A stretch of DNA of 63,031 nucleotides, filler included, from Stramenopiles sp. TOSAG23-6 (lineage: Eukaryota): NCBI GenBank assembly GCA_900128565.1. It is 49 parts of 49 records of this genome, joined end to end, with 100 filler letters (N's around TTAATTAATTAA, not from the genome) between each part and the next. Parts side by side here need not be neighbours in the genome. Positions count along the whole stretch, not along the records: positions 58,035 to 59,209 come from LT639533.1; 48 more parts are not named here. One strand, given 5' to 3'. The notes under the pieces are model-generated. The model was not told where the DNA came from, did no database searches, and worked only from the letters and a program-made list of their open reading frames with translations. This document shows, piece after piece, positions 2,267 through 60,484 of this stretch; within the stretch, counting starts at the first letter, position 1; each line of letters begins with the position of its first letter. The position numbers and the translations under genes are program-made.

Positions 2267-2658
2267 AGATTGTAGAGATTATATATTGAATTTTCAACCG
2301 CATAAAATGAAGGAAGGAAGAAGATAGAGATTTTAGAGATTATATATTGAATTTTGTATGTAAAAGATATCGCCATATATATGAAAAGTGAAAAAGACAA
2401 AAGCAAAATATTAATAGAATTTTATTGTAAAAAGAGTAATAAAGATTATATACTCTATTGGTAAAATACTTTCAATTCTTCGTTTTCCTACTCGTTTCTT
2501 CATCTNNNNNNNNNNNNNNNNNNNNNNNNNNNNNNNNNNNNNNNNNNNNTTAATTAATTAANNNNNNNNNNNNNNNNNNNNNNNNNNNNNNNNNNNNNNN
2601 NNNNNTTGTACCTAACAATTTTTTTAGATTTTTTTTGAAATATTTTTCCAAAATACAT

Positions 2659-3568
2659 GCCTGTTGTAGTACAATTACTGTTGCATCCTCATTCTTGGGT
2701 TCGTCTGGCATCTTCTCGGATAGTTGGTATGTTTGTATCAAGAACAAATCCTAAACAATTATCGGATAATTCAAATAATTGTATAACAGAAAAAAGTTTT
2801 TTGTGCAATCCAGGAATTCTCTTTGATCTAGCTAAATTTTCTTGCATGCAATTACAAAGTACAATATTGACTGAAAATCAAGCCCGACAAACAATTAAAA
2901 ATTTAGTGTACTGTGGTATTGCTATGTCATTTAATCCAACACTTTGTTTTACTGAAGAAATCAAAAAAGAGATATTTGAAAATGAATCTGATGAAATGTC
3001 AAAAACAATTCAAGTATCAGAAAGACCATTAAATTGGTTGTTTCATCGTATGGCAGGTTTGTGTCGCGAACAAAGAAGAATAAAACGTGACAAAAATGGT
3101 AAAGTAGCTCGTGATGCTGCAGAGCATGCTCTTCGAGTAGGTGATATTACAGGTATCAGACGTCGTGCAGTATTCAGATGGTTTGGTGCAATTACAGTGT
3201 CTTTGAATGTGAACAAAACTGCTTCTTATTTATCTGTTGTTTTACCCGTTTTATTACAAGCTCAAGCTAAAATTGAAGGAAGAGAAGCAAAACATGCCAA
3301 ACGATCTGAGCAAAGCACAGCAACATTAGCACAAGAAGTTCTTGCTTTATTATCAAAAACTCATGATTCAAAAGTTTATTTAGATGAGCATCATAAGTCT
3401 GTGTTGAAATATAAAGAAACGAAACGTGAACGAAAGAAAAAAAGAGCAATTGAAAAAATTGTGAATCCTATGGCACATACTCAAAGAAAACGTGCTAGAC
3501 ATTTACATGCTAGAGCACAAAGAAAACTTAAACTCCAACAGCATAAAATGAAGGAAGGAAGAAGATAG
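2659..3568 (+). CDS. UTP20: Exact duplicate contig of the UTP20 fragment
   Basis: 2606-3807 is identical to 1304-2505. Confidence 0.8.
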
Positions 3569-3972
3569 AGATTGTAGAGATTATATATTGAATTTTCAAC
3601 CGCATAAAATGAAGGAAGGAAGAAGATAGAGATTTTAGAGATTATATATTGAATTTTGTATGTAAAAGATATCGCCATATATATGAAAAGTGAAAAAGAC
3701 AAAAGCAAAATATTAATAGAATTTTATTGTAAAAAGAGTAATAAAGATTATATACTCTATTGGTAAAATACTTTCAATTCTTCGTTTTCCTACTCGTTTC
3801 TTCATCTNNNNNNNNNNNNNNNNNNNNNNNNNNNNNNNNNNNNNNNNNNNNTTAATTAATTAANNNNNNNNNNNNNNNNNNNNNNNNNNNNNNNNNNNNN
3901 NNNNNNNTAGGTACAAAATTTCGTACGAAAAAAAAATTCGATTTTTTTGTTAAAAAAAAAAATGAAACATAC

Positions 3973-15669: not shown

Positions 15670-16637
15670 ATCAGGTGTTCTAAATCCAATTGTATCTCCT
15701 GGTAAAGATGCTGGTGGTGCAGTAATAGCCATAGGAATATATTCCATACTATCTTTGTTATTTGAATCAATTATGTTAGGGTTAGGGTTATCCAAATAAT
15801 CATCATCAAAACTTTTTGTTTCATAATATGAATCATCATCAATACAATTATTATTTTTTGAATTAGGGTTAGGGTTAAAATTTAAATTTTTCAACTCCAT
15901 TTTGTCATAATTACTAAAATGTGTTTGTACGTGATTTAAGTGATTTAAGTGATTTAAGTGATTTAAGTGATTTAAGTTATTTACGTCATCAAATGGTAAA
16001 TTGAATGAATCGCCCAGAGATTTCACTGAAAAAATTCCGATTCGTAAATTTGCCTTTGATTTCGTGTTTTTTAATACTTTTGATGACGTGTCAACTGGAA
16101 TTGCTTCAACGATATCATTATACCGACGATTTGTACCAAATTTTCGTTCTTTTTTTTCCTTGATTCTTTGTAAATGAGCTATATATATATTGTGAAAAAA
16201 TATAGATTTTTTTTGTTTGTTTGTTTTGTTAGGTTTGAAATTTAAAAAAAAAAAAATTTTAAATTTTTTTTTCAAATTTTTTCAAATTTTTTTTAAATTA
16301 AATTTTTTTAAATTTTTTTTTTTCAAATATTTTGAGAAATGAAAACGTATATTCTTGATTTGGTTCATCATCTAACAAATTTCCAGATTTTGAAATTTCA
16401 TTTGCTAATGGATGTAAACTATTTGGAAATATTTTTTGACAAATAATATTTTCTAATTGCTGAACTTTTCTGAAATTCTTATTATTTTTCATTTTTTGAC
16501 TAGGGTTAGGGGTAAATTCATCTAATGGAACATTTTTGATTCCTAATTTTCTAGATATTTGTACTAAAGTATTTGAAATGATATCAATATATTCAAGAAA
16601 TGATAAAGGACATTGTGCATCAATTAGGGATACTATA
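15670..16637 (-). CDS. Hypothetical Asn-rich protein, 2 exons (intron 16185-16350 with ATACGT donor)
   Basis: Upstream intron ends TACTAAC..CCCACAG (canonical); gaa t|ATACGT..CACAATATAT|at ata gct; (GTGATTTAA)n and TTAGGG inserts in frame. Confidence 0.55.
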
Positions 16638-16891: not shown

Positions 16892-17135
16892 CACATGGCT
16901 ACATCTGAAGGACTTGTCCAAAGAGATGCATCACAAAATTACAGATCATTTGTTCTTTCAAGATCATTTTTTGCAGGATCTCAGAGATTTGGTGCCATTT
17001 GGACAGGTGATAATAAATCTGATTGGGGGCATTTGAAAATGTCATCTAAAATGATTCTCACCATGGGTATTTCTGGTTATCCGTTTGCTGGTGCTGATAT
17101 TGGAGGTTTTTTTGGGAATCCTGACAAAGAATTAT
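16892..17135 (+). CDS. GANAB: Glycoside hydrolase family 31 (glucosidase II alpha-like) exon
   Basis: RSFVLSRSFFAGSQRFGAIWTGDN..W.HL..GADIGGFFGNPD.EL. Confidence 0.93.
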
Positions 17136-17242
17136 GTATGTTTTATTTTTTTTAATTTCGAATTTATTTTTTTTTCGTACGAAATTTTGTACCTAACAAT
17201 TTTTTTATAATTTTTTTTTTGAAATATTTTTCCAGAATACAT

Positions 17243-18085
17243 GCATCATGTGCATTCAGAACTTCGCCGAGCTACTTCAATTATTGGTACTTTATTAAGA
17301 AAATCGTCAGTAAAACTTTATACTAGTCATTTTAAGATTATGGTAAATGCACTCTCTTGTCCTATTTCATGGATGTCAGATAATATTGATAAAGATGATT
17401 CTCAAGAACGTACTAAAGGGACGTTTTGTTTCGTATGTGAAACTCCGTATCATATGGTACGTGATTGTCCTCAACGTGTACGAGAGAGGAAAGAAAGACG
17501 TTCGGAAATTTGTTATAAATGTGGTGAGTCTGGTCATAATATGCAAAAATGTAAAAATACAAAAGCAAAACGACGTGCAAAGGCTAGAAAAATGCAAAAA
17601 GAAGAACAAAAACGACAACGACAACAGGAATTTGAAAGAGTTAAACAAATGCGAAAGCAAAGAAGACAACAGCAACTAGAACAACAGCAACACATGCAAC
17701 GAAAACAAGAACAAAAAAAGCATTCCAAGTTAAATATTTCCGATTTGTCTTTTGATCGTAAAGCTAGGACAAAGTTTGACAGACTGGACGAAGATGAAAA
17801 ACAAAATGTATGTAATTTAATAAATCAAACACTTAAGAGAGATGGGCGTATGAGTAATCCTAGTGCATTTCTTATCAGTTGTATACGTAAAATACAAAAA
17901 CAACAACAAAAAGAACAACAGAAACAAAACCAACAGCAGAAACAAAGCCAACAGAAGCAACAAAACCAACAACAGAAACAACAGCGACATAATCAAAGTA
18001 AAAAAAAGAATCAAAATAGGAAAAGTCAAGAAAAAAAACAACATCAGCAGCAGCAGCAAGTACAACAAAAACAACAAAAAAAACA
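17243..18085 (+). CDS. CCHC zinc-knuckle, Gln-rich protein fragment (unrelated to upstream GH31)
   Basis: CFVCETPYHMVRDC and CYKCGESGHNMQKC; NPSAFLIS motif; poly-Q tail. Confidence 0.7.
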
Positions 18086-21000
18086 NNNNNNNNNNNNNNN
18101 NNNNNNNNNNNNNNNNNNNNNNNNNNNNNTTAATTAATTAANNNNNNNNNNNNNNNNNNNNNNNNNNNNNNNNNNNNNNNNNNNNCACATGGCTACATCT
18201 GAAGGACTTGTCCAAAGAGATGCATCACAAAATTACAGATCATTTGTTCTTTCAAGATCATTTTTTGCAGGATCTCAGAGATTTGGTGCCATTTGGACAG
18301 GTGATAATAAATCTGATTGGGGGCATTTGAAAATGTCATCTAAAATGATTCTCACCATGGGTATTTCTGGTTATCCGTTTGCTGGTGCTGATATTGGAGG
18401 TTTTTTTGGGAATCCTGACAAAGAATTATGTATGTTTTATTTTTTTTAATTTCGAATTTATTTTTTTTTCGTACGAAATTTTGTACCTAACAATTTTTTT
18501 ATAATTTTTTTTTTGAAATATTTTTCCAGAATACATGCATCATGTGCATTCAGAACTTCGCCGAGCTACTTCAATTATTGGTACTTTATTAAGAAAATCG
18601 TCAGTAAAACTTTATACTAGTCATTTTAAGATTATGGTAAATGCACTCTCTTGTCCTATTTCATGGATGTCAGATAATATTGATAAAGATGATTCTCAAG
18701 AACGTACTAAAGGGACGTTTTGTTTCGTATGTGAAACTCCGTATCATATGGTACGTGATTGTCCTCAACGTGTACGAGAGAGGAAAGAAAGACGTTCGGA
18801 AATTTGTTATAAATGTGGTGAGTCTGGTCATAATATGCAAAAATGTAAAAATACAAAAGCAAAACGACGTGCAAAGGCTAGAAAAATGCAAAAAGAAGAA
18901 CAAAAACGACAACGACAACAGGAATTTGAAAGAGTTAAACAAATGCGAAAGCAAAGAAGACAACAGCAACTAGAACAACAGCAACACATGCAACGAAAAC
19001 AAGAACAAAAAAAGCATTCCAAGTTAAATATTTCCGATTTGTCTTTTGATCGTAAAGCTAGGACAAAGTTTGACAGACTGGACGAAGATGAAAAACAAAA
19101 TGTATGTAATTTAATAAATCAAACACTTAAGAGAGATGGGCGTATGAGTAATCCTAGTGCATTTCTTATCAGTTGTATACGTAAAATACAAAAACAACAA
19201 CAAAAAGAACAACAGAAACAAAACCAACAGCAGAAACAAAGCCAACAGAAGCAACAAAACCAACAACAGAAACAACAGCGACATAATCAAAGTAAAAAAA
19301 AGAATCAAAATAGGAAAAGTCAAGAAAAAAAACAACATCAGCAGCAGCAGCAAGTACAACAAAAACAACAAAAAAAACANNNNNNNNNNNNNNNNNNNNN
19401 NNNNNNNNNNNNNNNNNNNNNNNTTAATTAATTAANNNNNNNNNNNNNNNNNNNNNNNNNNNNNNNNNNNNNNNNNNNNCACATGGCTACATCTGAAGGA
19501 CTTGTCCAAAGAGATGCATCACAAAATTACAGATCATTTGTTCTTTCAAGATCATTTTTTGCAGGATCTCAGAGATTTGGTGCCATTTGGACAGGTGATA
19601 ATAAATCTGATTGGGGGCATTTGAAAATGTCATCTAAAATGATTCTCACCATGGGTATTTCTGGTTATCCGTTTGCTGGTGCTGATATTGGAGGTTTTTT
19701 TGGGAATCCTGACAAAGAATTATGTATGTTTTATTTTTTTTAATTTCGAATTTATTTTTTTTTCGTACGAAATTTTGTACCTAACAATTTTTTTATAATT
19801 TTTTTTTTGAAATATTTTTCCAGAATACATGCATCATGTGCATTCAGAACTTCGCCGAGCTACTTCAATTATTGGTACTTTATTAAGAAAATCGTCAGTA
19901 AAACTTTATACTAGTCATTTTAAGATTATGGTAAATGCACTCTCTTGTCCTATTTCATGGATGTCAGATAATATTGATAAAGATGATTCTCAAGAACGTA
20001 CTAAAGGGACGTTTTGTTTCGTATGTGAAACTCCGTATCATATGGTACGTGATTGTCCTCAACGTGTACGAGAGAGGAAAGAAAGACGTTCGGAAATTTG
20101 TTATAAATGTGGTGAGTCTGGTCATAATATGCAAAAATGTAAAAATACAAAAGCAAAACGACGTGCAAAGGCTAGAAAAATGCAAAAAGAAGAACAAAAA
20201 CGACAACGACAACAGGAATTTGAAAGAGTTAAACAAATGCGAAAGCAAAGAAGACAACAGCAACTAGAACAACAGCAACACATGCAACGAAAACAAGAAC
20301 AAAAAAAGCATTCCAAGTTAAATATTTCCGATTTGTCTTTTGATCGTAAAGCTAGGACAAAGTTTGACAGACTGGACGAAGATGAAAAACAAAATGTATG
20401 TAATTTAATAAATCAAACACTTAAGAGAGATGGGCGTATGAGTAATCCTAGTGCATTTCTTATCAGTTGTATACGTAAAATACAAAAACAACAACAAAAA
20501 GAACAACAGAAACAAAACCAACAGCAGAAACAAAGCCAACAGAAGCAACAAAACCAACAACAGAAACAACAGCGACATAATCAAAGTAAAAAAAAGAATC
20601 AAAATAGGAAAAGTCAAGAAAAAAAACAACATCAGCAGCAGCAGCAAGTACAACAAAAACAACAAAAAAAACANNNNNNNNNNNNNNNNNNNNNNNNNNN
20701 NNNNNNNNNNNNNNNNNTTAATTAATTAANNNNNNNNNNNNNNNNNNNNNNNNNNNNNNNNNNNNNNNNNNNNCACATGGCTACATCTGAAGGACTTGTC
20801 CAAAGAGATGCATCACAAAATTACAGATCATTTGTTCTTTCAAGATCATTTTTTGCAGGATCTCAGAGATTTGGTGCCATTTGGACAGGTGATAATAAAT
20901 CTGATTGGGGGCATTTGAAAATGTCATCTAAAATGATTCTCACCATGGGTATTTCTGGTTATCCGTTTGCTGGTGCTGATATTGGAGGTTTTTTTGGGAA

Positions 21001-22067
21001 TCCTGACAAAGAATTATGTATGTTTTATTTTTTTTAATTTCGAATTTATTTTTTTTTCGTACGAAATTTTGTACCTAACAATTTTTTTATAATTTTTTTT
21101 TTGAAATATTTTTCCAGAATACATGCATCATGTGCATTCAGAACTTCGCCGAGCTACTTCAATTATTGGTACTTTATTAAGAAAATCGTCAGTAAAACTT
21201 TATACTAGTCATTTTAAGATTATGGTAAATGCACTCTCTTGTCCTATTTCATGGATGTCAGATAATATTGATAAAGATGATTCTCAAGAACGTACTAAAG
21301 GGACGTTTTGTTTCGTATGTGAAACTCCGTATCATATGGTACGTGATTGTCCTCAACGTGTACGAGAGAGGAAAGAAAGACGTTCGGAAATTTGTTATAA
21401 ATGTGGTGAGTCTGGTCATAATATGCAAAAATGTAAAAATACAAAAGCAAAACGACGTGCAAAGGCTAGAAAAATGCAAAAAGAAGAACAAAAACGACAA
21501 CGACAACAGGAATTTGAAAGAGTTAAACAAATGCGAAAGCAAAGAAGACAACAGCAACTAGAACAACAGCAACACATGCAACGAAAACAAGAACAAAAAA
21601 AGCATTCCAAGTTAAATATTTCCGATTTGTCTTTTGATCGTAAAGCTAGGACAAAGTTTGACAGACTGGACGAAGATGAAAAACAAAATGTATGTAATTT
21701 AATAAATCAAACACTTAAGAGAGATGGGCGTATGAGTAATCCTAGTGCATTTCTTATCAGTTGTATACGTAAAATACAAAAACAACAACAAAAAGAACAA
21801 CAGAAACAAAACCAACAGCAGAAACAAAGCCAACAGAAGCAACAAAACCAACAACAGAAACAACAGCGACATAATCAAAGTAAAAAAAAGAATCAAAATA
21901 GGAAAAGTCAAGAAAAAAAACAACATCAGCAGCAGCAGCAAGTACAACAAAAACAACAAAAAAAACANNNNNNNNNNNNNNNNNNNNNNNNNNNNNNNNN
22001 NNNNNNNNNNNTTAATTAATTAANNNNNNNNNNNNNNNNNNNNNNNNNNNNNNNNNNNNNNNNNNNN

Positions 22068-23261
22068 TTCAAACGGATGAAAATTGTGCTAGTGATAGTA
22101 GTAAAGTCTCTATTGATTCAAAACTACAAATTCAAACGGATGAAAATTGTGCTAGTGATAGTAGTAAAGTCTCTATTGATTCAAATCTACAAATTTCTAA
22201 CACTAACAGTAAAGTTTCAAATCTACAAAATGTTTTCCCTGAATCAAAAAAAAATGTAACAAATGATATTACAGAATCTTCGTGTGCTACAAATAATTTA
22301 TCTAAGGAAATTAATACAACAGAAATGTTGAATCAGACAGAATTTTCCAATTCAGAAAACCCCAACCCTAATCAGACAGAATTTTCCAATTCGGTTGAAA
22401 TTACAAATGGTCTGAAAGATAATAATATATTCATGGCTACTAATAATGATGATGTAAATGATACCAATAATTTGTCAAGTAATAAAAGTCGTAGTGAAAA
22501 TAATGATGTCCCTAACCCTAATGATAGTAAAAATAATGATGACCCTAACCCTAATGATTCCGATACTGAATCAGATATGTCACAAGATTTAGAAATAGAA
22601 AAATCGTCAAGTAATAAAAGTCGTAGTGAAAATAATGATGACCCTAACCCTAATGATAGTAAAAATAATGATGACCCTAACCCTAATGATTCCGATACTG
22701 AATCAGATATGTCACAAGATTTAGATGACCTTACTTCTACCTCAGTCAATATAACAGATGATGCATGTAGTAATAAAATCAATTATTCATCAAATTTAAG
22801 TTCTGTAGATAAAAAGTCTAATATTGCATCACAAATTCATTCAACAAAACAATCAGAAAACTGTCAATATATCACGAATACACACAAAAATGATGAATCG
22901 AGTCATGCTGAAACTACAGATGAAGAAGATGGTATTCATAATGATACAATCGATGAAGATGTCAGTCATAATGATACAATCGATGAAGATGTCAGTCATA
23001 ATGATACAGTGACTTCAATTATATCTAACTCAGATGGAGAGACTACGGATGAAAATAATGATGATATAATGGAACTAGTAGCAGAGCCTAAAGTGAAAAA
23101 AAAATCTGGAAATATGAAAGAAGATCAAGAAAGAAAAATAGATGAGAAAAAAGAATCTTTGGAGAAGGAAGAAGAAACAAAACGACAAAAACTTTTGTTA
23201 GAAGCAAAATTAAAAGCAGAACAAGAGGCGAAATTAAAAGCAGAACAAGAGGCGAAATTAA
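22068..23261 (+). CDS. Acidic Asn/Asp-rich repetitive protein fragment
   Basis: Long open frame; in-frame tandem repeats (63, 129, 30, 24 nt); DPNPND motifs. Confidence 0.6.
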
Positions 23262-27141: not shown

Positions 27142-28618
27142 NNNNNNNNNNNNNNNNNNNNNNNNNNNNNNNNNNNNNNNNNNNNTTAATTAATTAANNN
27201 NNNNNNNNNNNNNNNNNNNNNNNNNNNNNNNNNNNNNNNNNAAAAAAAAAAAAAAAATTTAAAAAAAAAAAAATTGAAATATGTTTTGATAGTATAGGGA
27301 CATCCACGAGGTATGCGATTACTATCCATGGTTATGCTAAAAAGTGGTGACATTATTGGTGCAATTTCAACATTACAAGTTTTATTATATCAAAACAAAA
27401 ATAACAAAAATAACAAAAATAACAAAAATATAGGAAAACTTTTTACTCCAATTTCTCAACAAAATTCAAAAAATGAAAAAAAACATTTGAAAATACAATT
27501 ACAAAATTTTGATTTTTTTAATAATTTTATTACAAAATTTGATATTGAACGATTAGAAAGCACATTTCTCCTATCTTTGATTTACTTGGAATTATATCAT
27601 ACAAAACAATGTATGTTTTATTTTATTTTTTTTTTACAAAAAAATCGAATTTTTTTTTTTTTTTTTTTTACGGAAAAAAAAATTTTTGAAATTTTTTTCC
27701 GAAAAAAATTTTTTTCAACCAAAAAAAAAAATCGAATTTTTTTTTCATACGAAATTTTGTACCTAACGATTTTTTTTTTACTCAATTTTTTTTTTCAACC
27801 AAAAAAAAAATCGAATTTTTTTTTCATACGAAATTTTGTACCTAACGAATTTTTTTTTTACTCAATTTTTTTTTTTGAAATATTTTGAAAAAATACATAC
27901 AGCATTGGATGATATTCAATCATTAGGAATTGAAAAGTATGCTAATGAAGTTTTTTCATCATTACAAAATTTTCGTTCATCATTTGAACATATGCACAAA
28001 CCTGTTCCAGAAGAAATTGCAATTACATTACGGAATCTAACATATGGACCAGGTGGTCATGTATGTTTTACTTTTTTTTTTTTTTTTTTTAAAAATTTTA
28101 TTTTTTTTTTTTACAAAAAAATCGAATTTTTTTTTTTTTTTTTACGGAAAAAAAAATTTTTGAAATATTTTTCCGAAATACATGTTTGTTTCAAAACAAA
28201 AATGATAAAAAACAGGTCTGTTCCAATAATGAATATGCTGCATTAGCAGTGCAATATATAAAAAGTATTGTTCAATACAAAACAATAGATTTTATTAAAG
28301 CAAATGTATGTTTTATTTTTTTTTTTTTCAACCAAAAAAAAAAAATCGAATTTTTTTTTCATACGAAATTTTGTACCTAACCAAAAAAAAAAAAAAATTT
28401 TTTTAAACCAAAAAAAAAAACAAATTTTTTTTTNNNNNNNNNNNNNNNNNNNNNNNNNNNNNNNNNNNNNNNNNNNNTTAATTAATTAANNNNNNNNNNN
28501 NNNNNNNNNNNNNNNNNNNNNNNNNNNNNNNNNAAAAAGCGAAACATAAACGAACCTAAACAACTGTAGCATTCCATTTCTTAGCATATTTTTAGTGTGT
28601 ACAGTACATCAAATTAAA

Positions 28619-32691: not shown

Positions 32692-33079
32692 ACTTTTGTT
32701 TCTCTCGAGCCTGACGCGTATTATCCTAATAATTTCAATGATTTTGCTTCTGGTTTAGTCACTCTTTTTGAATTATTAGTTGTCAATAATTGGTTCATCA
32801 TTATGGATGGTTTTGCTGCTGCTACTGGTTCTGATTGGAGTAGGTGGTTTTTCATTTCGTGTACGTTTTCATCTTGAATGTATGAATTTTTTTTTGAGTT
32901 CAATTTTTTTTTTCGTAGTGAATTTTGTACCTAACAATTTTTTGTAAAAATAAACTTTTGTTCACTATACATGGTGGCTATTCGCTGTAGTAATGGTTCT
33001 TAACTTAGTTGTAGCATTTGTTTTAGAAGCATTTGAAGAAAATCATTTGAAGAAAAACACCGAAATCGATACAATATAA
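32692..33079 (+). CDS. TPC: Two-pore calcium channel (TPC) second pore and S6; GT-AT intron 32861-32972
   Basis: YYPNNFNDFASGLVTLFELLVVNNWFIIMDG..WSRWFFIS|WWLFAVVMVLNLVVAFVLEAF. Confidence 0.9.
32861..32972 (+). mobile_element. Introner-family intron, GT-AT
   Basis: tcg t|GTACGT..TTGTACCTAAC..CTATACAT|gg tgg cta. Confidence 0.88.
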
Positions 33080-35124: not shown

Positions 35125-36071
35125 ATATATTTTTGTGCTCAGTCGTAAGGCAATGGACGACACGAAATTTCTATTTTTATTATTTTCAATTTGTTTTGGA
35201 ATTTGTTTTGAAATATTTTCTGGATTATTGTTCAGATGATCCACAGTGTACAAAAATTTGATTGAACGAATCCATCGACCATTCACAAAATCTGCAAATT
35301 CACGTAATAATCCAGGAGAGAGTAGTTGTAAAATATCTTTCTGATGTTTTGCTTTAAATAAATCTTTGCATTGTAAAAAAAACAGACGCAATTTAAACCC
35401 TAAACTTTGAGACACATTTATTTTGGAAAAATATTTTTTTTTTTTTTTTTGGATAATAAAAAAAATTTNTTAGGTANAAAATTTTTTTACNAAAAAAAAA
35501 AAAAAAATTCGAAATTCAATTTTGAAAACGTATATTAATTTCTTTTAGGTAGTCATTCAAATAATCATTTAACTGATTTGATTGAATCGATGCTTGATTT
35601 CGTGTACTTACTATCCCACAGACGGCTCCTACGACATAGGCATAAATGCCAGCCCCAAAGAGCATGTATTTTGGAAAAATATTTCATAAAAAAAAATTTT
35701 GAAGATTTGTTAGGTACAAAAATTTTTTTTTCGTAAATAAAAAAAAAAATTAAATGTAAACATACATAGTAATTGTTACAAATATTCTCTCTATAGTGTT
35801 AGTAGGTACTATATCTCCATATCCAATGGTTGTTAATGTCGTAACTGCCCAATATAATGAAACTGAATACCGAAAAGACGGCGATTTGTCACGTAAATCA
35901 AAAGCTTCTGAATTATTTGAATATTGAGTTAACCAAGAATCTCTCAAACCCGGTAACACGCCAATCATATGCCAAGCACACGAAATCCAATGGGAAAGCG
36001 TTAATACTGCTATCAAAAATTTTATTAATGATACAGTGGAGAAGCGTAAACTAAATCTATTTTGAAATCTT
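35125..36071 (-). CDS. Cyclic-nucleotide-binding-domain K+ channel (S5-pore-S6-C-linker), 3 exons
   Basis: HWISCAW, SLYWAVTTLTTIGYGDIVP.N..ER, M|LFGAGIYAYVVG, C-linker ILQLLSPGL. Confidence 0.92.
35416..35533 (-). mobile_element. Introner-family intron with AT-AT ends
   Basis: att aat|ATACGTTTTC..CCAAAATAAAT|gtg tct caa, phase 0, restores the C-linker. Confidence 0.75.
35664..35765 (-). mobile_element. Introner-family intron, GT-AT, in channel S6
   Basis: act at|GTATGT..TGTACCTAAC..CCAAAATACAT|g ctc ttt ggg. Confidence 0.9.
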
Positions 36072-36272
36072 GTGTATTTTGGAAAAATATTTAAAAAATT
36101 TTGAAAATTTGTTAGGTACAAAATTTTTATAAAAAAAAAAATTCGATTTTTTTTTTTTTTTTTTTTTTTTTTNNNNNNNNNNNNNNNNNNNNNNNNNNNN
36201 NNNNNNNNNNNNNNNNTTAATTAATTAANNNNNNNNNNNNNNNNNNNNNNNNNNNNNNNNNNNNNNNNNNNN

Positions 36273-36966: not shown

Positions 36967-37084
36967 GTAGCTCAGCAAGCAGGCTTCCAAACGGGTCCCC
37001 CACGATCGTACTAGCTGCTCTCAACCGGGCTTAACTTCTCAGTTCGGATGGGATGAGGTGCTGGTCCGGTGATATGGCCGAGCT
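36967..37084 (-). rRNA. 5S rRNA gene
   Basis: AGCTCGGCCATA..CCCATCCGAACT..GAAGTTAAGC..TAGTAC..TGGGGGACC..GGAA..GCTGAGCT; ends pair; T6 terminator at 36959-36964; TATA-like ~25 nt upstream. Confidence 0.93.
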
Positions 37085-37145
37085 GAGATTAGTGTGTAAG
37101 TTTAAGTATATATACAACAATCACTATTGACTTTCTGAAGTAATA

Positions 37146-37558: not shown

Positions 37559-38551
37559 TCTCATTCTGTTTCTGTTGTGACTCTTCCAAATAGTATGACT
37601 ACACGAAATACTAATAATAATTTTTCCAGTAATACTAATAATAATCCTACTAATACTACTAATGATACATTTGTACATCTAAAAAATCAAACGACAACAA
37701 ACACCAATATAGAAAAAACACGACATATAGAAAAAACACGAAATATAGAAAAAATACGAAACAGTATTACTGTGTTTTCTATAAACAAATTATGGCATTT
37801 ATTATGGATAACAATTACAGAAGCTAGTCAACAATTATTACACATATGGCCTGTGCATACAGATAACATACTTTCAATGACACGAAAACCTGAAAAAACA
37901 AAAAGTCAAGTATCTCGGAATAGATTACCTTCTAAATGGTTCACAAATGATGAAAATGATGGGGAAGAGAACCCTAACCCTAACCCTAACCCTAGTGATG
38001 AAAATGAAAATGAAATTTTAAATATTTCAAATCTTGATACGACAGACAATACATCTACCATACATACACAAAACTCGTCCAAACCAAAAAGATTAGGGTT
38101 AGGGTGTGTACAGAATAATATTGAGTGTTCAGCATCAACAGAAGAAAAAAATTTTGAAAATATTTTTTTTGGAACATCTCCGACATCTCCGACATCTCCA
38201 AACTTTAAAAAACCTCCATTAGTTCCGAAAGTAAATACATTATCTTGTTCTTCTATAATAGGGTCAAAAAACAATACTATTTCTTCATCATCTACGATAG
38301 GGTTAGGGTTAAAAAAGGATAATATCGAAAATAGTAAAAATGATATTATTACAATTAACTCATTACAATTATTACTTCCAAAACCTCCGACAACAAAAGA
38401 ATATTATAGTAAGAATGATTCAACTGTAACGAGAAAACATAATGATATTATAAATACTACTACTAATAATAATAATAATAATAATGATAATACTACTATT
38501 AATAATAATAATAATAATGATACTACTACTACTAATAAAAAAACAATATAA
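37559..38551 (+). CDS. Asn/Thr-rich low-complexity C-terminus with in-frame telomere-like inserts
   Basis: Open frame; NPNPNPNP and LGLG segments; 30-nt repeat after the stop. Confidence 0.6.
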   Translation, partial: SHSVSVVTLPNSMTTRNTNNNFSSNTNNNPTNTTNDTFVHLKNQTTTNTNIEKTRHIEKTRNIEKIRNSITVFSINKLWHLLWITITEASQQLLHIWPVHTDNILSMTRKPEKTKSQVSRNRLPSKWFTNDENDGEENPNPNPNPSDENENEILNISNLDTTDNTSTIHTQNSSKPKRLGLGCVQNNIECSASTEEKNFENIFFGTSPTSPTSPNFKKPPLVPKVNTLSCSSIIGSKNNTISSSSTIGLGLKKDNIENSKNDIITINSLQLLLPKPPTTKEYYSKNDSTVTRKHNDIINTTTNNNNNNNDNTTINNNNNNDTTTTNKKTI

Positions 38552-41526: not shown

Positions 41527-42591
41527 ATTTTTATAACATTGACAATTGCATCTAGAACTTCATTGGCTGCCCAAGGATTGACATTTACAGCACCATTGAG
41601 AACTCGGCTACATATCTTTTGAAATAATATTTTTTTTTTTCATACAACTTTTGTTAGGTCGATATTAAAAAAAAGTTTAAAATTTTTTTTTTTTTTAAAT
41701 TAGGGTTAGGGGTAAAAAATTCAATTTTGAAAACGTACATCCAGAGAATTGACTTACAATGACTACTCCATTAGTATTAGTATGCACATATTCTAATGGT
41801 AATAAATTAAAAGATTCACGCACAGATGTTGTGATAAGCGCATCAGCTGCTAAATAATAAGAAATTCTTTCTTCCATCTCGAGAGAATTCACTTCAATAA
41901 ATTCAATTGTACATAAAGTATGAAAAAATATTTCAAAAAAAATCTAAAAAATTCTGTTAGGTACAAAATTTCGTATGAAAATTAAAAAAAAAATTCAATA
42001 CATTTAATTGTACCTGGGCAAATATCATTTGTTTCCTTTTGTAATTTGAGTATTTCAGTTCTTGTTTCACCAATACGTTTTTTATTTGCATCAATTCCAG
42101 ACCTAGTTGTTAGACCAATTTGTACCAAAGCTACTTTTTCATGTAACTGAGGGTATGTATTGTGAATTTTTTTTTTTTTTTTTTTTTTAAAAAAAAATCG
42201 TTAGGTACAAAATTTCGTATGAAAAAAAATTTTTTTTTTTTAAAATAATAATAATTGTACAAACATACATTGTTCTAACATTGATTTGAATGCTAATAAT
42301 TTAAATGGAATTCCTCTAATTCTTGTTAATTCATCAATGCCTAAAAATAAAAACTTTTTCTTATGTCTTTGTAAAACTTCCTCAACATTATCCTGTGGTT
42401 TTGAATGTATGTATTTATTCAATATGGAAGGTTCAATTCCTGGATGGGATATGAATTGTGAAAAAAAAAATGTCAAAATTTTTTCAAAAAATTTGTTAGG
42501 TACAAAATTTACTACAAAAAAAAAAAAATTTGAAATTCATGATGAAAATCTACACCGTAATTGTGACGTCACGACCTTGCATGTGAACCTT
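41527..42591 (-). CDS. TPS: Trehalose-6-phosphate synthase (GT20), 5 exons; four GT-AT introns
   Basis: V|SHPGI, LGIDEL..RGIPFKLLAF..LEQ|YPQLHEKVALVQI, AADALITTSVRESFNLLPLEY, VSQFSG|CSRVLNGAVNVNPW; introns 42451-42553, 42155-42268, 41913-42001(or 42013), 41612-41738. Confidence 0.92.
41612..41738 (-). mobile_element. Introner-family intron, GT-AT; neighbouring AGs are out of frame
   Basis: gga t|GTACGT..CCTAAC..AAAAGATAT|gt agc cga; AG 4 nt upstream or 4 nt downstream breaks the frame. Confidence 0.88.
42155..42268 (-). mobile_element. Introner-family intron, GT-AT
   Basis: caa t|GTATGT..CATACGAAATTTTGTACCTAAC..CACAATACAT|ac cct cag. Confidence 0.9.
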
Positions 42592-48803: not shown

Positions 48804-48899
48804 AGTCCTGCCTGGGAGTCGAACCCAGAATCTCTTGCTCACTTCTAAAGTACTTCCTTAAACCGAAGGCAAGCGCCTTATCCATTGGGCCAACAGGAC
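48804..48899 (-). tRNA. tRNA-Arg(TCG) with 23-nt intron (48840-48862)
   Basis: GTCCTGT/GCAGGAC acceptor, TGGCCCAATGGATAAGGC D-arm, CTTGC-CT-TCG-G^A-GCAAG, CTGGG-TTCGACT-CCCAG. Confidence 0.95.
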
Positions 48900-51737: not shown

Positions 51738-52789
51738 GAACGTCAATTGCAGATTATTAATTCTAAATTAATGAAGCAATTATCTCAAGCGGAACTAGAT
51801 GCGTCATCACAAAGACAAAGTCGTGAACGTTTCAATAGGGTATCAAATATATCAATGATGAATCATAGAACGAATAGCAGAGAGCATGATGACCAATATA
51901 CACGAAATATCAATGATAGATTTAATGAGTTTGACACTGCGTCAATACACCCTAACCCTAATATGGACAATGCAACAAGTAATAGAAGTCAAATGAGTAG
52001 TAGTACGTATGATAGTATAATAGACACAAATGATAAGAAACACATTCAATCTGAAACGAAAACAGAACAAAATTCAAAACATTCAAAAAATGTAAAAAAT
52101 GTAAAACATTCAAAACATTCTGAAACATTTTCGAAACCAATCACAGAAACAAATTCTCAAGTAGCAGCACTAAAATCACAATTTAAAGCACAAATTGATC
52201 GATGGAATGGTATGTATGTTTTATTTTTTTGAAAATTTGAATTTTTTTTTTTTTGAAAATTATGTACCTAACAAATTTTTTTAGATTTTTTTTGAAATAT
52301 TTTTCCAAAATACATTCTTGAATCTGACGAAGATGACAATGAGACTTTTGAAGCAAGTAACCCTAACCCTAATAACAATGAGAACTTTGAAGCAAGTAAC
52401 CCTAACCCTAATGACAATGAGACATTTGAAGCATTTACTACATCAAAAACATATGACACGTGGCACCAGGACCATGACGATCATAGCACAGACAGACCTG
52501 TTTCATCTGATACACAACAATCTACATCGGTATCGTTATCAAGACCAACAACTCAACAGGAAAAAAACAAAATAAAAACAAAAAATAGTAAAAAAAATAA
52601 TAAAAAAAATATAAACCCTAACCCTAGCTATACAAACAAAAGTAAAAAAAAAGAAAGTCTTGATGATATGATGAAAACAGGACAAAATGATGCTGCAGAA
52701 GCAAGTATTGATAGAATAAATCAATTTTTACAAAGAAAAAAACGTGATGCAATAGAAAAAAAATTAGAACGGGACAAAAACTTACGAAT
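51738..52789 (+). CDS. Hypothetical coiled-coil/low-complexity protein (GT-AT intron 52214-52315)
   Basis: ggt at|GTATGT..TACAT|t ctt gaa; NPNP inserts. Confidence 0.55.
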
Positions 52790-54308: not shown

Positions 54309-55383
54309 TCTTTAGCAGATTGTGGCAATCAATATCTTCTCGCCCTAGGTATTAAAAAATCAGAAAAATTACCCACTGGTGTTCACGTTTGTTTATAGTA
54401 TTCATTTTTTGTATTTTTTGTATTTTTTTTATTTTTTCTATTTTTTCTATTTTTTGTATTTTTTTTAATTAGGGTTAGGGTTTAATATCAAATACGAAAA
54501 TTCCATTCCTACTGAAACAANACCTAATGTTTTTTTTTNTAACTANAAAATATTGTTACACAATATATCCATATGGTTATGCTAATGAAAGATACATTTT
54601 TGGTCTTATGTCAGGAGTTGGAATGTACGTTTTCATCATTTTTTTTTTTTTTTTTTAAATATTTTTTTTCGTACGAAATTTTNTACCNAANAANTTTTTT
54701 TAGATTTTTTTAGAATTTTTCAAACTACATCTTCTTCTTAGGTTGCGGGGTCACTTGTTACCATGGACTCCATTTATTATTCAATCCACAACCTCTGGAC
54801 AACCTTCCATTAGGAATAGGTATCATGGCAACTGCAGGAGCCATTGAAGGATACACTTTACACGTATGTTGAATTTGTATTATTATTTTGAAAAAAAAAT
54901 TGAAATTTTTTTTGAAATTTTTTTTTGAAATTTTTTTTTAGACGTCATTTAAAATAGCAAAAAAAAAAAAAAAACTANTTTTTTTTTTTTTTTGAAATAC
55001 GTTTTCACAATATTTGTCGCCATTCAAGCCGTTCGTAATGCTGCAAGAGAAACAAGAATGACATTTGGAGATTATATTCGAAAAGGCCCAGATCCTGTAC
55101 GTTTTTTTTTTTTTTTTTTACTTTTTTTTCAAATTCGAATTTTTTTTTTTCGTACGAAATTTTGTACCTAACAATTTTTNTTTTTTTTTTNCGGNAAAAA
55201 AAAATTTTGAAATATTTTTCTACAATACATGTATCNACGGCTGTATTATTAGAGGATGGAGCTGCTGTAACTGGCGTGTTTATTGCTGGATCTTGTATGG
55301 CAATGACCCACATAACTGGTAACTTACTATGGGATGCTGTAGGAACACTATTTGTTGGTGGTTTGCTAGGTGGTGTTGGTATA
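54309..55383 (+). CDS. SLC30A9: Cation diffusion facilitator ZnT9/SLC30A9-like, 5 exons; no internal intron ends in AG
   Basis: SLADCGNQ.LLALG..H|PYGY.NERY..L.SGVG|IFFLG.G..YHG..EG.TLH|VA..DP|VSTAVLLED.AAV.G; introns 54387-54568 GT-AT, 54625-54730 GT-AT, 54864-55015 GT-TT, 55097-55230 GT-AT. Confidence 0.93.
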
Positions 55384-58046: not shown

Positions 58047-59209
58047 ATGCCAAAACGAAATGCAAATTCACCTTTTGAAACTATTCTGGAGGAAGTAGGT
58101 GTCGATTTGACACACTCAGAAGACAAGGAGAACAATAATGATGAAAATGATACCGAAATTATCGTCCCTAAAGGTGTACAATGTCGCGATCCTTTAAAGA
58201 TGAGTGGTGAATTGGAGACGTTATTTTCGAGTGGACGATATCGTGCTAGTGATTTCATGCAAGGTCTTGAAAGTTTTTTGAGCGATGAAACGAACCTTCG
58301 TAAATGTTTAATGCCAATGATTCTGTCTCAACACAAAAGACAACGGTTCAATACAACCTGACTTGATACAACATATTCTTATTAGCTTAGTTCCAGAATA
58401 TATGGACAATAATAATGATTGTAGTCGTTTGGTAGATAACATGACTAAATTATTACTTTCACAACTCAAATGGCTCGAGTTCATTAGTGATAGTTCGGCT
58501 CTGACGGATACTTTACTTGAATGTTTACAAGTTTGTCCATCAAAGGTACAAATTGAAATTGTTGGGTTTCTTCCTGAAATCCTCGATGATAGTCACCAAG
58601 AGAGAATCGTGATGGGTCTTCAGGAACTCATGGAAAATGATATTTCTATATACGTTTTCAAAATTGAATGTAATTTTTTTTTTCATACGAAATTTTGTAC
58701 CTAACAAAACATTTTTACTAAAAAAAAATATTTCTTTACAAAACATGGTCGTTCATGTGTTAGAATGTTTTAGCAACCTTCAACTCACACCAAAACTCCT
58801 AGAATCAGTCATGAAGTGGGTATTAGAAACATTAGCTTCAACAAGAATGGAAGACTTACCTGTCATTTTACGATTTTTAATGCAAAGTGTCCCTCCTGAT
58901 GTGTCCGTTGCAAAGCAAGTCGTACTACAACTTCGTACACAACTTCGCCTGTCGAATAAACCAGATATAAATGAAGCAGCTCAAGAAGTCCTGTTAATGG
59001 AAGCATTATCTAATGGACTTCATTTTAGAAGTGATATTGCTGAAATATTTTTGGAGGTCATTTCAGACGCAAAACAAGCAATTGTCTTTGATTTATGGAT
59101 TCTTTTATTACTATCTGAAATCGAACTTTGGCGTAAAAATGCAATTATTCTTTTTCGAAAAAAAATTTCATCTGGGCAATTTACACATCTGCTGTTAAGG
59201 GATTGTTTT
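58047..59209 (+). CDS. FANCD2: Fanconi anemia D2 N-terminal region (frame break ~58340; intron 58650-58746)
   Basis: LLSQLKWLE, VQIEIVGFLPEILDDSHQ, VLECFSNLQL, EDLPVILRFLMQS, LRTQL. Confidence 0.9.
58650..58746 (+). mobile_element. Introner-family intron with AT-AT ends; no AG inside
   Basis: tct at|ATACGTTTTC..CATACGAAATTTTGTACCTAAC..CAAAACAT|g gtc gtt. Confidence 0.82.
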
Positions 59210-59309: not shown

Positions 59310-59896
59310 GATTCCGCGCGTGCCAAGGCGACTGCAATGCTATTAAAGGAAAACAAAGGCCTTCTTAGTTTAGATGTGTGTAAAAAATTGCTCTCATATC
59401 CTAGTATGAAACGATCGTGGCTGATTTCGTTTTTTGATGCTGGTGGCTTTGATGCCGTATTTGAAGCTTTAAATAACTTCCGGAGGGCACGTATTCAGCT
59501 TGGTAAATGGAATGTTGAACAAGCTGAATTGGNNNNNNNNNNNNNNNNNNNNNNNNNNNNNNNNNNNNNNNNNNNNNNNNNNNNNNNNNNNNNNNNNNNN
59601 NNNNNNNNNNNNNNNNNNNNNNNNNNNNNNNNNNNNNNNNNNNNNNNNNNNNNNNNNNNNNNNNNNNNNNNNNGATTCCGCGCGTGCCAAGGCGACTGCA
59701 ATGCTATTAAAGGAAAACAAAGGCCTTCTTAGTTTAGATGTGTGTAAAAAATTGCTCTCATATCCTAGTATGAAACGATCGTGGCTGATTTCGTTTTTTG
59801 ATGCTGGTGGCTTTGATGCCGTATTTGAAGCTTTAAATAACTTCCGGAGGGCACGTATTCAGCTTGGTAAATGGAATGTTGAACAAGCTGAATTGG
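59310..59896 (+). CDS. Formin GBD/FH3-like fragment (222 nt duplicated across a gap)
   Basis: SWLISFFDAGGFDAVFEAL resembles the GBD SW..F...GG..L motif. Confidence 0.45.
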
Positions 59897-60484
59897 ATAT
59901 GTTTTGCAACAAATGAAGATAATGATAAAAACCAAGAAAGTTGGGATGATGATGAACTTGGTGAATCGCTAGGTCACATGCAGGTTGTCGAAGCATTTCG
60001 ATTTTTCAGTCGAGAGCACACTGAAGTACTTTGTTTTTCATCAACAAAAAAACTTTGTCGGAGTCTAAAAGATAATCCTGACGTAGGGGGTAACCTGTTG
60101 AAGATCCAAAAAGACAGAAACAACGTAGAAGATCTTTTACGAACAGTTTTTCGTGAACTGGCAGAGAAATCGACATTTGATAAACTTCTTGCAACTGTTG
60201 ATGAAGATAAAAAATGTGAGCAAGATAGAGAGAATCTAGTTCTTTTGGAAAAGGAAACAACACGAGCTGTACAAGACTTAGAAAAAGAATTGGAGGAGGA
60301 AAAATACGAACATCAAGAAGAAGTCAAACGCCAAAATGATTTGGTAGAAACCCTTAAGCAAAAACTAAGTAGAATGGAGAGTACATCAGCTATGCAAATG
60401 GAATATAGACGTGCAGAATCAATGTCAAAGCTAGCATCAAAACAACGGACAGGTAATCAAGTCTTAAAAGATCATGAAAGAAAG
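59897..60484 (+). CDS. IQCG: IQCG/DRC9-like flagellar coiled-coil protein fragment
   Basis: STKKLCRSLKDNPDV..NL.KIQ.DR followed by a long coiled coil. Confidence 0.65.

Follow-up and report, generated by a model that had tools for sequence, protein, structure and literature searches.

Candidate introns with an A at the first position in a high-copy intron family of Stramenopiles sp. TOSAG23-6

Introns with an A at position +1

The stretch of DNA from Stramenopiles sp. TOSAG23-6 (assembly GCA_900128565.1) analysed here, in the following the window, has 63,031 bases. It consists of 49 contigs in order of length (1,173–1,203 bases), with N44-TTAATTAATTAA-N44 linkers between them (e.g., at 1204–1303 and 2506–2605). 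The contigs are separate and genes on different contigs are therefore not neighbours. Distinct contigs number 45 out of 49 and total 53,447 bases: contigs 1 and 2 (1304–2505 and 2606–3807) are identical to each other, and contigs 13 to 16 (16892 to 21967) are four identical copies. The G+C content across the window is 25–33%. Coding sequences in the window are interrupted by copies of an intron family; its host genes include FANCD2, a K+ channel gene and THOC5, and about 50 distinct tails bearing the branch motif CCTAAC are spread over the 45 distinct contigs. A family copy has the layout GTAYGT, CCTAAC, about 44 nucleotides (nt) and HAT, with AT duplicated on both flanks. The upstream part is GTATGTTTTA or GTACGTTTTC. 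The shared module comprises a T run, CRTACGAAATTTTGTACCTAAC, a T-rich stretch and often GAAATATTTTTCCAAAATACAT, followed by coding sequence.

No bases of spliceosomal introns are more conserved than the G at position +1 and the G at position −1, whose contact is a textbook check at exon ligation. Three family copies have an A at +1. The window contains RTACGTTTTC ten times as an exact match, where shuffled sequences would give 0.44; six of the matches have G and four have A as the first base. ATACGTTTTC is located at 58650 (+), 35533 (−) and 16350 (−), where six sister copies carry GTACGTTTTC; these exact matches confirm the A at +1 that a preliminary description of this DNA had reported for three copies. 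The fourth ATACGTTTTC, at 54997 (+), is not a donor and lies within the tail of an intron starting at 54864. The sites at 58650, 35533 and 16350 close open frames of 109, 50 and 136 codons, and CCTAAC follows each of them. Removal of 58650–58746, 35416–35533 and 16185–16350, as the preliminary description had proposed, reopens 155, 124 and 196 codons, respectively. Acceptors shifted by one or two bases give 5 or 8, 4 or 6 and 1 or 21 codons.

The FANCD2 copy

The A-start intron of FANCD2 has 97 nt (58650–58746, +; ATACGT..TACCTAAC..CAT). The upstream exon (58321–58649, +) ends in AT in codon phase 2 and matches the Pfam family FancD2 (E=3e-15, profile 146–238). The downstream exon (58747–59209, +) extends to the contig end and matches the same family (E=9e-12, profile 244–309). 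The branch A lies in the branch-site motif TACCTAAC at 58698–58705 (+), at a distance of 42 nt from the intron end. Residues 11–104 of the upstream exon match human residues 145–235 (chain 6vaa_B). Human residues 236–241 are filled by five more exon residues and the junction codon, and the first V of the next exon is human 242. The exons are thus colinear with human FANCD2 across the junction, with no insertion or deletion, and therefore exactly 97 nt must be removed. In the comparison with Pfam, the downstream exon scored 43.8 bits with its first nine residues and 36.5 bits without them. A protein search with the downstream exon yielded no match.

Two other junctions were rejected. No AG within 30 nt is in the right phase for the GT at +5 of the intron. 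The donor ATACGT joined to an AG 27 nt downstream stays in frame, but deletes nine residues that correspond to human 242–250 and are worth 7.3 bits in Pfam. Cuts at 58648–58744 or 58649–58745 yield an mRNA identical to that of 58650–58746.

The K+ channel copy

The K+ channel gene is on the minus strand and contains two family introns. Exon 1 (35766–36172) encodes the pore region (Pfam Ion_trans_2, E=5e-12) and aligns to the homologue P0004. It is followed by a G-start sister intron (35664–35765; GTATGT..CCTAAC..CAT), by exon 2 with the inner helix (35534–35663), by the A-start intron of 118 nt (35416–35533; ATACGT..TACCTAAN..AAT) and by exon 3 (35129–35415), of which the lower end is approximate, with the next family donor near 35128. 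Single N letters occur in the A-start intron. A HMMER search with exon 3 found seven distant homologues and one public model of 164 residues, P0002. The product of the family register forms one ungapped block with all seven homologues. The three-exon product has its junctions at residues 135 and 179, and neither shows a gap in the alignments to P0004 (query 89–236), P0003 (88–233) and P0006 (101–234). In the homologues, one Met occupies the first site and Asn-Val the second, which identifies the second AT at each site as a duplication. Taken together, the alignments support the predicted A-start intron 35533–35416 and, as a control, the predicted G-start GT..CAT intron 35765–35664. Searches of solved structures with the K+ channel exons gave 0 matches.

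P0002 (35044–35663, −) is identical to the conceptual product of the GT at +5 joined to TTTAG 16 nt downstream. This product has a junction gap of 4 residues against six of the seven homologues and a lower score against all seven. P0002 takes its start ATG from the first exon base and the two bases before it, which end the previous family intron, and does not include the pore exon of this contig. These traits suggest that P0002 was built with canonical sites only. Such genes are mis-modelled by gene finders that accept no introns but GT-AG: in P0002, the pore exon is lost and a false junction is created. A canonical-site-only annotation of the organism is probably wrong in many genes.

The A-start copies could also be damaged introns that are retained, poorly spliced or rescued by cryptic canonical sites, that is, by the GT at +5 and a downstream AG. 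P0002 uses this very GT, and an AG in phase with it is present in two of the three copies (+16 in the K+ channel, +19 in the 16350 copy). In yeast, a change of G1 to A reportedly blocks the second splicing step (attributed to Parker and Siliciano 1993). This explanation is nevertheless unlikely. The FANCD2 copy lacks the AG in phase within 30 nt, the K+ channel product of this kind is the one gapped and lower-scoring against the homologues, and P0002 bears the marks of canonical-site restriction, the intron-derived ATG and the missing pore exon. With an in-phase AG in 8 of 21 copies by chance, its presence in two out of three is unremarkable (p=0.32).

Signals of the intron family

Signal statistics cover the 21 copies that are complete on one contig, and we assigned the 3′ end, the terminal AT, from the family alignment. 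The first base is G in 18 copies and A in three; no other base replaces the G. T at +2, A at +3 and G at +5 are present in every copy, T at +6 in 20. The terminal dinucleotide is AT in 21/21, preceded at position −3 by C (16), T (4) or A (1). The first exon base downstream is G in 11 copies. The upstream exon terminates in AT in 17 of the 21 copies (P=3e-12 against our rough base-composition estimate of 0.13). The branch A is located 34–59 nt before the 3′ end in all 20 copies with CCTAAC. Ending the intron at the family AT gave the longest downstream frame of the three registers in 18 copies (binomial 1e-6), the exceptions being 17136, 27611 and 34824. A strict frame-margin test was passed by 15 (binomial 4e-4), among them all three A-start copies.

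The family resembles introners: many near-identical copies are present in unrelated genes and positions, and the junctions show a target-site duplication. Located between two AT, a copy must leave as the element plus one AT. With a GTRNGT-like donor and a CTRAY branch site that precedes the 3′ end by tens of nt, the family agrees with introns of the U2 type, save for the +1 A in three copies. The 3′ splice site YAG is missing, as the frame-keeping register ends in CAT, TAT or AAT. The U2-type AT-AC class does not fit either; the last base at the family register is T in all three A-start copies. Pairing between the intron ends is weak. It is confined to GTAT with ATAC and to runs of T and A. 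A duplex of the two ends has about −2.8 kcal/mol, and 8 of the 21 copies have paired ends in their minimum-energy fold. Covariation between the donor and the internal motif CRTACG was not seen by eye among the listed copies.

The whole family might be handled by a minor (U12-like) or a hybrid spliceosome. GTATGTTT matches the U12 donor consensus at 6 of 8 positions and CCTAAC resembles the U12 branch consensus. Introns of the U12 type with the termini AT-AT (12) and GT-AT (7) are on record in human plus mouse (Sheth et al. 2006; PMC1557818, Table 2), therefore the termini as such are not new. According to this table, the likeness extends to the terminal dinucleotides, with a G or A at +1 opposite a terminal T. 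The tabulated introns are rare single cases with a U12 donor and a branch site near the 3′ end, whereas the copies in the window form a repeat family with the donor GTAYGT or ATACGT. The U12-type donor RTATCCTT is absent from the 21 complete copies: G at +5 (21/21) and T at +6 (20/21) stand where it has CC. The statement of the preliminary description that none of the A-start copies has a U12 donor thus holds. The distance of 34–59 nt from branch A to 3′ end in 20/20 copies exceeds the 10–26 nt or so of U12-type introns, and the tails are T-rich. An Rfam search of the window detected a 5S rRNA and a tRNA and no minor small nuclear RNA, although 53 kb of distinct sequence says little on this point. 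We regard an involvement of the minor spliceosome as quite improbable.

Evidence from seawater DNA and RNA

Parts of the FANCD2 contig are present in seawater metagenomes and metatranscriptomes. Contigs of a seawater metagenome DNA run from 2024 (X1), a separate sequencing run, were compared with the FANCD2 contig only. An X1 contig of 328 bases (record 3, depth 4.25) spans 58371–58699 and keeps the A at 58650. It differs from the window only at 58551 (A to G) and 58653 (C to T). Another X1 contig covers 58704–58902 without a difference. The A at +1 of the FANCD2 intron is real DNA.

A sequencing or assembly error as the origin of the A at +1 is very unlikely. The assembly is fragmented, with single N letters in the K+ channel intron and duplicated contigs, and errors are to be considered. 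Random errors would not be expected at a single position: the three cases affect the same position of about 38 donors, and none is found at +2, +3 or +5. The A in the X1 contig also argues against an error.

The difference at 58653 turns the FANCD2 donor into ATATGT. It is a CpG-to-TpG change, and position +4 is thus free to vary.

The elements could be removed from the DNA, like the eliminated sequences of ciliates. The copies are flanked by short direct repeats, and the excision has to be precise. Yet X1 contigs extend over both exon-intron borders of the FANCD2 copy at an exon-like depth, and no X1 DNA contig joins across this intron. The copies also carry a donor, a branch site and a T-rich tail. 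An excision between internal TA dinucleotides would presumably add two residues, contrary to the ungapped alignments. DNA removal is the least probable of the explanations considered.

The intron core is far more abundant than its host gene. In X1, the summed contig depth is about 1.7e5 over the core and about 5 over the FANCD2 exons. The core (58671–58716) is also very abundant in contigs of RNA libraries, where the summed depth reaches about 5e4 (X6) and 3.6e4 (X8); this depth could originate from unspliced RNA, element transcripts or carried-over DNA. A scan of viral contigs for the intron core gave 0 matches. The 38 loci from a metagenome scan for A-start copies were without exception unrelated chance matches.

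Splicing register and interpretation

In our interpretation, to which we assign a probability of roughly 55%, the three A-start sites are genuine members of a very high-copy, transposon-derived, introner-like family of U2-type introns in an AT-rich marine protist, and a change of G to A at +1 is tolerated. Homology fixes the length of the removed sequence in FANCD2 and the K+ channel; we infer splicing at the RNA level, the register of the cuts and the pairing logic. The element would leave with one AT and thereby have the 3′ end HAU instead of YAG. The donor would still be set by the invariant positions +2 to +8 and by the branch site. During exon ligation, the terminal U would dock against the first intron base. 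This base could be G, forming a G-U pair, or A, forming an A-U pair, so that the G-to-A change at +1 would be tolerated. The preliminary description had likewise proposed that a terminal U permits an A at +1. This is plausible, with three cases giving no statistical power.

Another alternative concerns the register. In the A-start copies, the intron follows an exonic AT and ends in AT. The cuts AT..AT, TA..NA and AT..AN therefore give the same mRNA, and for that reason the termini are unreadable from DNA or cDNA. If both cuts were 2 nt upstream, the FANCD2 intron would be an AT..AC intron, the K+ channel intron AT..AA and the 16350 copy AT..AT; the G-to-A change would then be at +3. The exonic AT, present in all three A-start copies as in 17/21 complete copies, is consistent with this shift. 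The FANCD2 tail C-A-T gives the end AC, and AU..AC is tolerated in the P-complex model. But AC, AA and AT follow no consistent rule. The ends of the shifted cuts are also less conserved, with AT at the start in 17/21 and C as the last base in 16/21, whereas every one of the 21 copies has GT or AT as the first and AT as the last dinucleotide at the unshifted cuts. Four copies without an exonic AT still begin with GTACGT, and the match to GTAYGT would be 2 nt out of register with a shifted cut. The termini AT..AT are favoured by the conservation of the unshifted ends and the fit of the GTAYGT donor match to the unshifted cut, and we consider the shifted register rather unlikely.

The third A-start intron (16185–16350, −; ATACGT..AACCTAAC..TAT) interrupts a gene of unknown function, and more than one 3′ end suits the reading frame. 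Protein searches around 16350 returned insignificant matches only and no homologue to fix the junction. Three cuts are in frame: ATACGT to TAT (16185), ATACGT to TAG (16179) and the GT at +5 to an AG. The removal at the family register proposed in the preliminary description is thus supported by the reading frame for all three copies and by homology for FANCD2 and the K+ channel; for 16350, it competes with the in-frame AG alternatives. The use of the downstream GT (ATAC|GT), which was to refute that proposal, fails for FANCD2 for want of an in-phase AG and for the K+ channel by the 4-residue gap, while the 16350 copy offers an in-frame AG.

Several observations weigh against genuine A-start introns that end in AT. 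The TAG of the 16350 copy, 6 nt beyond the TAT, is equally in frame, and the AG for the GT at +5 is 19 nt downstream; this copy may end in AG. The public model P0002 splices the K+ channel intron as GT..AG. The junctions of all A-start copies are degenerate by the 2 nt of the duplicated AT. No RNA contig crosses the FANCD2 junction, and the contigs from RNA libraries cover only 58346–58549. Support for the A at +1 by a second data set is limited to FANCD2 and to one contig with a depth of 4.25. The A-start is restricted to the subfamily with ACGTTTTY, with 3/11 donors against 0/27 in the others (Fisher p=0.02); a stricter count of donors with a branch motif in reach gave 3/11 against 0/17 (p=0.05). 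This restriction could reflect common descent of the A-start copies and not a general tolerance. By eye, the three copies share no other derived letters that distinguish them from G-start copies such as 41738.

A wider proposal is that the major spliceosome of this organism routinely ligates at HAU instead of YAG for thousands of transposon-born introns, with G-U or A-U as the contact of first and last base. We put it forward tentatively and consider it doubtful. If true, the A-start copies would be natural covariation evidence for the contact of first and last base and would point to an altered Prp18/Prp8/Prp22 fidelity system.

Comparison with known systems

A pairing of the first with the last intron base, G+1 with G−1 or A+1 with C−1, was reportedly proposed by Parker and Siliciano in 1993. 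The preliminary description used the same idea. In the P-complex structure, the last G pairs with the first G and A−2 with the branch A, and AU..AC is allowed (bioRxiv 10.1101/212811). The pairs G-U and A-U are not among the normal pairs described there.

The closest working model for the 3′ end of the family is, by analogy, yeast lacking Prp18. The relevant passages of Roy et al. 2023 (PMC10711555) report CAU and UAU as the best non-G 3′ sites in this mutant, helped by upstream U tracts, and propose a pair of U−1 with G+1. The use of CAU and UAU as 3′ sites is common to both systems. In the mutant, however, HAU sites are low-level errors (PMC10711555), whereas HAT appears as the regular end of the family in the window and +1 can also be A.

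The U2-type AT-AC introns ("type II") share the A at +1 within an otherwise major-spliceosome donor (PMC1557818). They end in C, whereas the frame-keeping end of the A-start copies is T; AC would be possible only for FANCD2 with the cuts shifted by 2 nt.

Transposon-derived introns with odd ends are known from Micromonas introners, Fritillaria borealis (AG-AC and AG-AT) and Amoebophrya, according to the review passages on these cases (PMC11282704). Common features are many copies, target-site duplications of which one is co-opted into the intron, and a seemingly tolerant spliceosome. The family described here differs from these cases by a strong yeast-like GTAYGT and CCTAAC, a 2-nt AT duplication and the ends GT..AT or AT..AT. 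None of these three features is described in the passages on transposon-derived introns in that review (PMC11282704).

A literature search found no description of the intron family, with subscription journals mostly outside its scope. A term search in the main text of three MAST genome papers (PMC5778133, PMC12614181 and PMC8163842) found no discussion of intron signals. No paper joining "introner" with MAST-3 or MAST-4 was among the matches listed, and a literature search for TACCTAAC gave nothing useful.

The conserved genes FANCD2 and K+ channel appear to need the removal of introns without a G at either end. The sequence pattern suggests an unusually tolerant splicing. Should RNA data confirm it, the organism would be a natural system for a harmless relaxation of 3′ splice-site fidelity, for the conversion of a 2-nt target duplication into a splice site by a transposon, and for the pairs of first and last base that the catalytic core accepts.

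Further family copies and other features of the window

Three G-start copies illustrate the variation within the family. The copy in THOC5 (749–836, +; GTACGTTTTC) follows an exon ending in AG and has an in-frame CAG 3 nt beyond its end; a protein search with THOC5 retrieved the protein of the window alone. The copy at 32861–32972 (+; GTACGTTTTC) follows an exon ending in GT, not AT. The copy at 41612–41738 (−) has the same first 20 bases as the FANCD2 and K+ channel copies except for +1. The copies at 749, 32861, 50884 and 55097 (all +) have an upstream exon that does not end in AT, and all four have an in-phase AG 3–24 nt past the family AT. Among the copies flanked by AT, 5 of 17 have an in-phase AG within 24 nt. 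The four copies without an exonic AT may use the AG.

The intron at 17136–17242 (+) is located in a gene with a CCHC zinc knuckle on the contig that is present fourfold, and at the family register its frames differ by 2. This contig may represent a retroelement gag-like gene or carry an assembly error. In the intron at 27611–27902 (+), the branch-site module is duplicated and the frame fits a CAG 4 nt beyond the usual CAT; the family thus includes copies with an AG end.

The window has 22 sites with the telomere-like motif CCCTAACCCTA, where 0 are expected, for example, at 15777–15787 (−), 22510–22520 (+), 37972–37994 (+), 52361–52410 (+) and 41701–41711 (−). Several of the sites are within long open frames and would read Asn-Pro-Asn-Pro; one is inside a family intron. 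CCCTAACCCTA may be a second type of short insertion. An open reading frame with an AP2 domain was also found in the window. The 5S rRNA gene is at 36967–37085 (−), and a tRNA match of 96 bases at 48804–48899 (−) could house an intron. The same coding stretch flanks a gap of 141 N on both sides (59310–59530 and 59674–59900), and this duplication is probably a scaffolding artefact.

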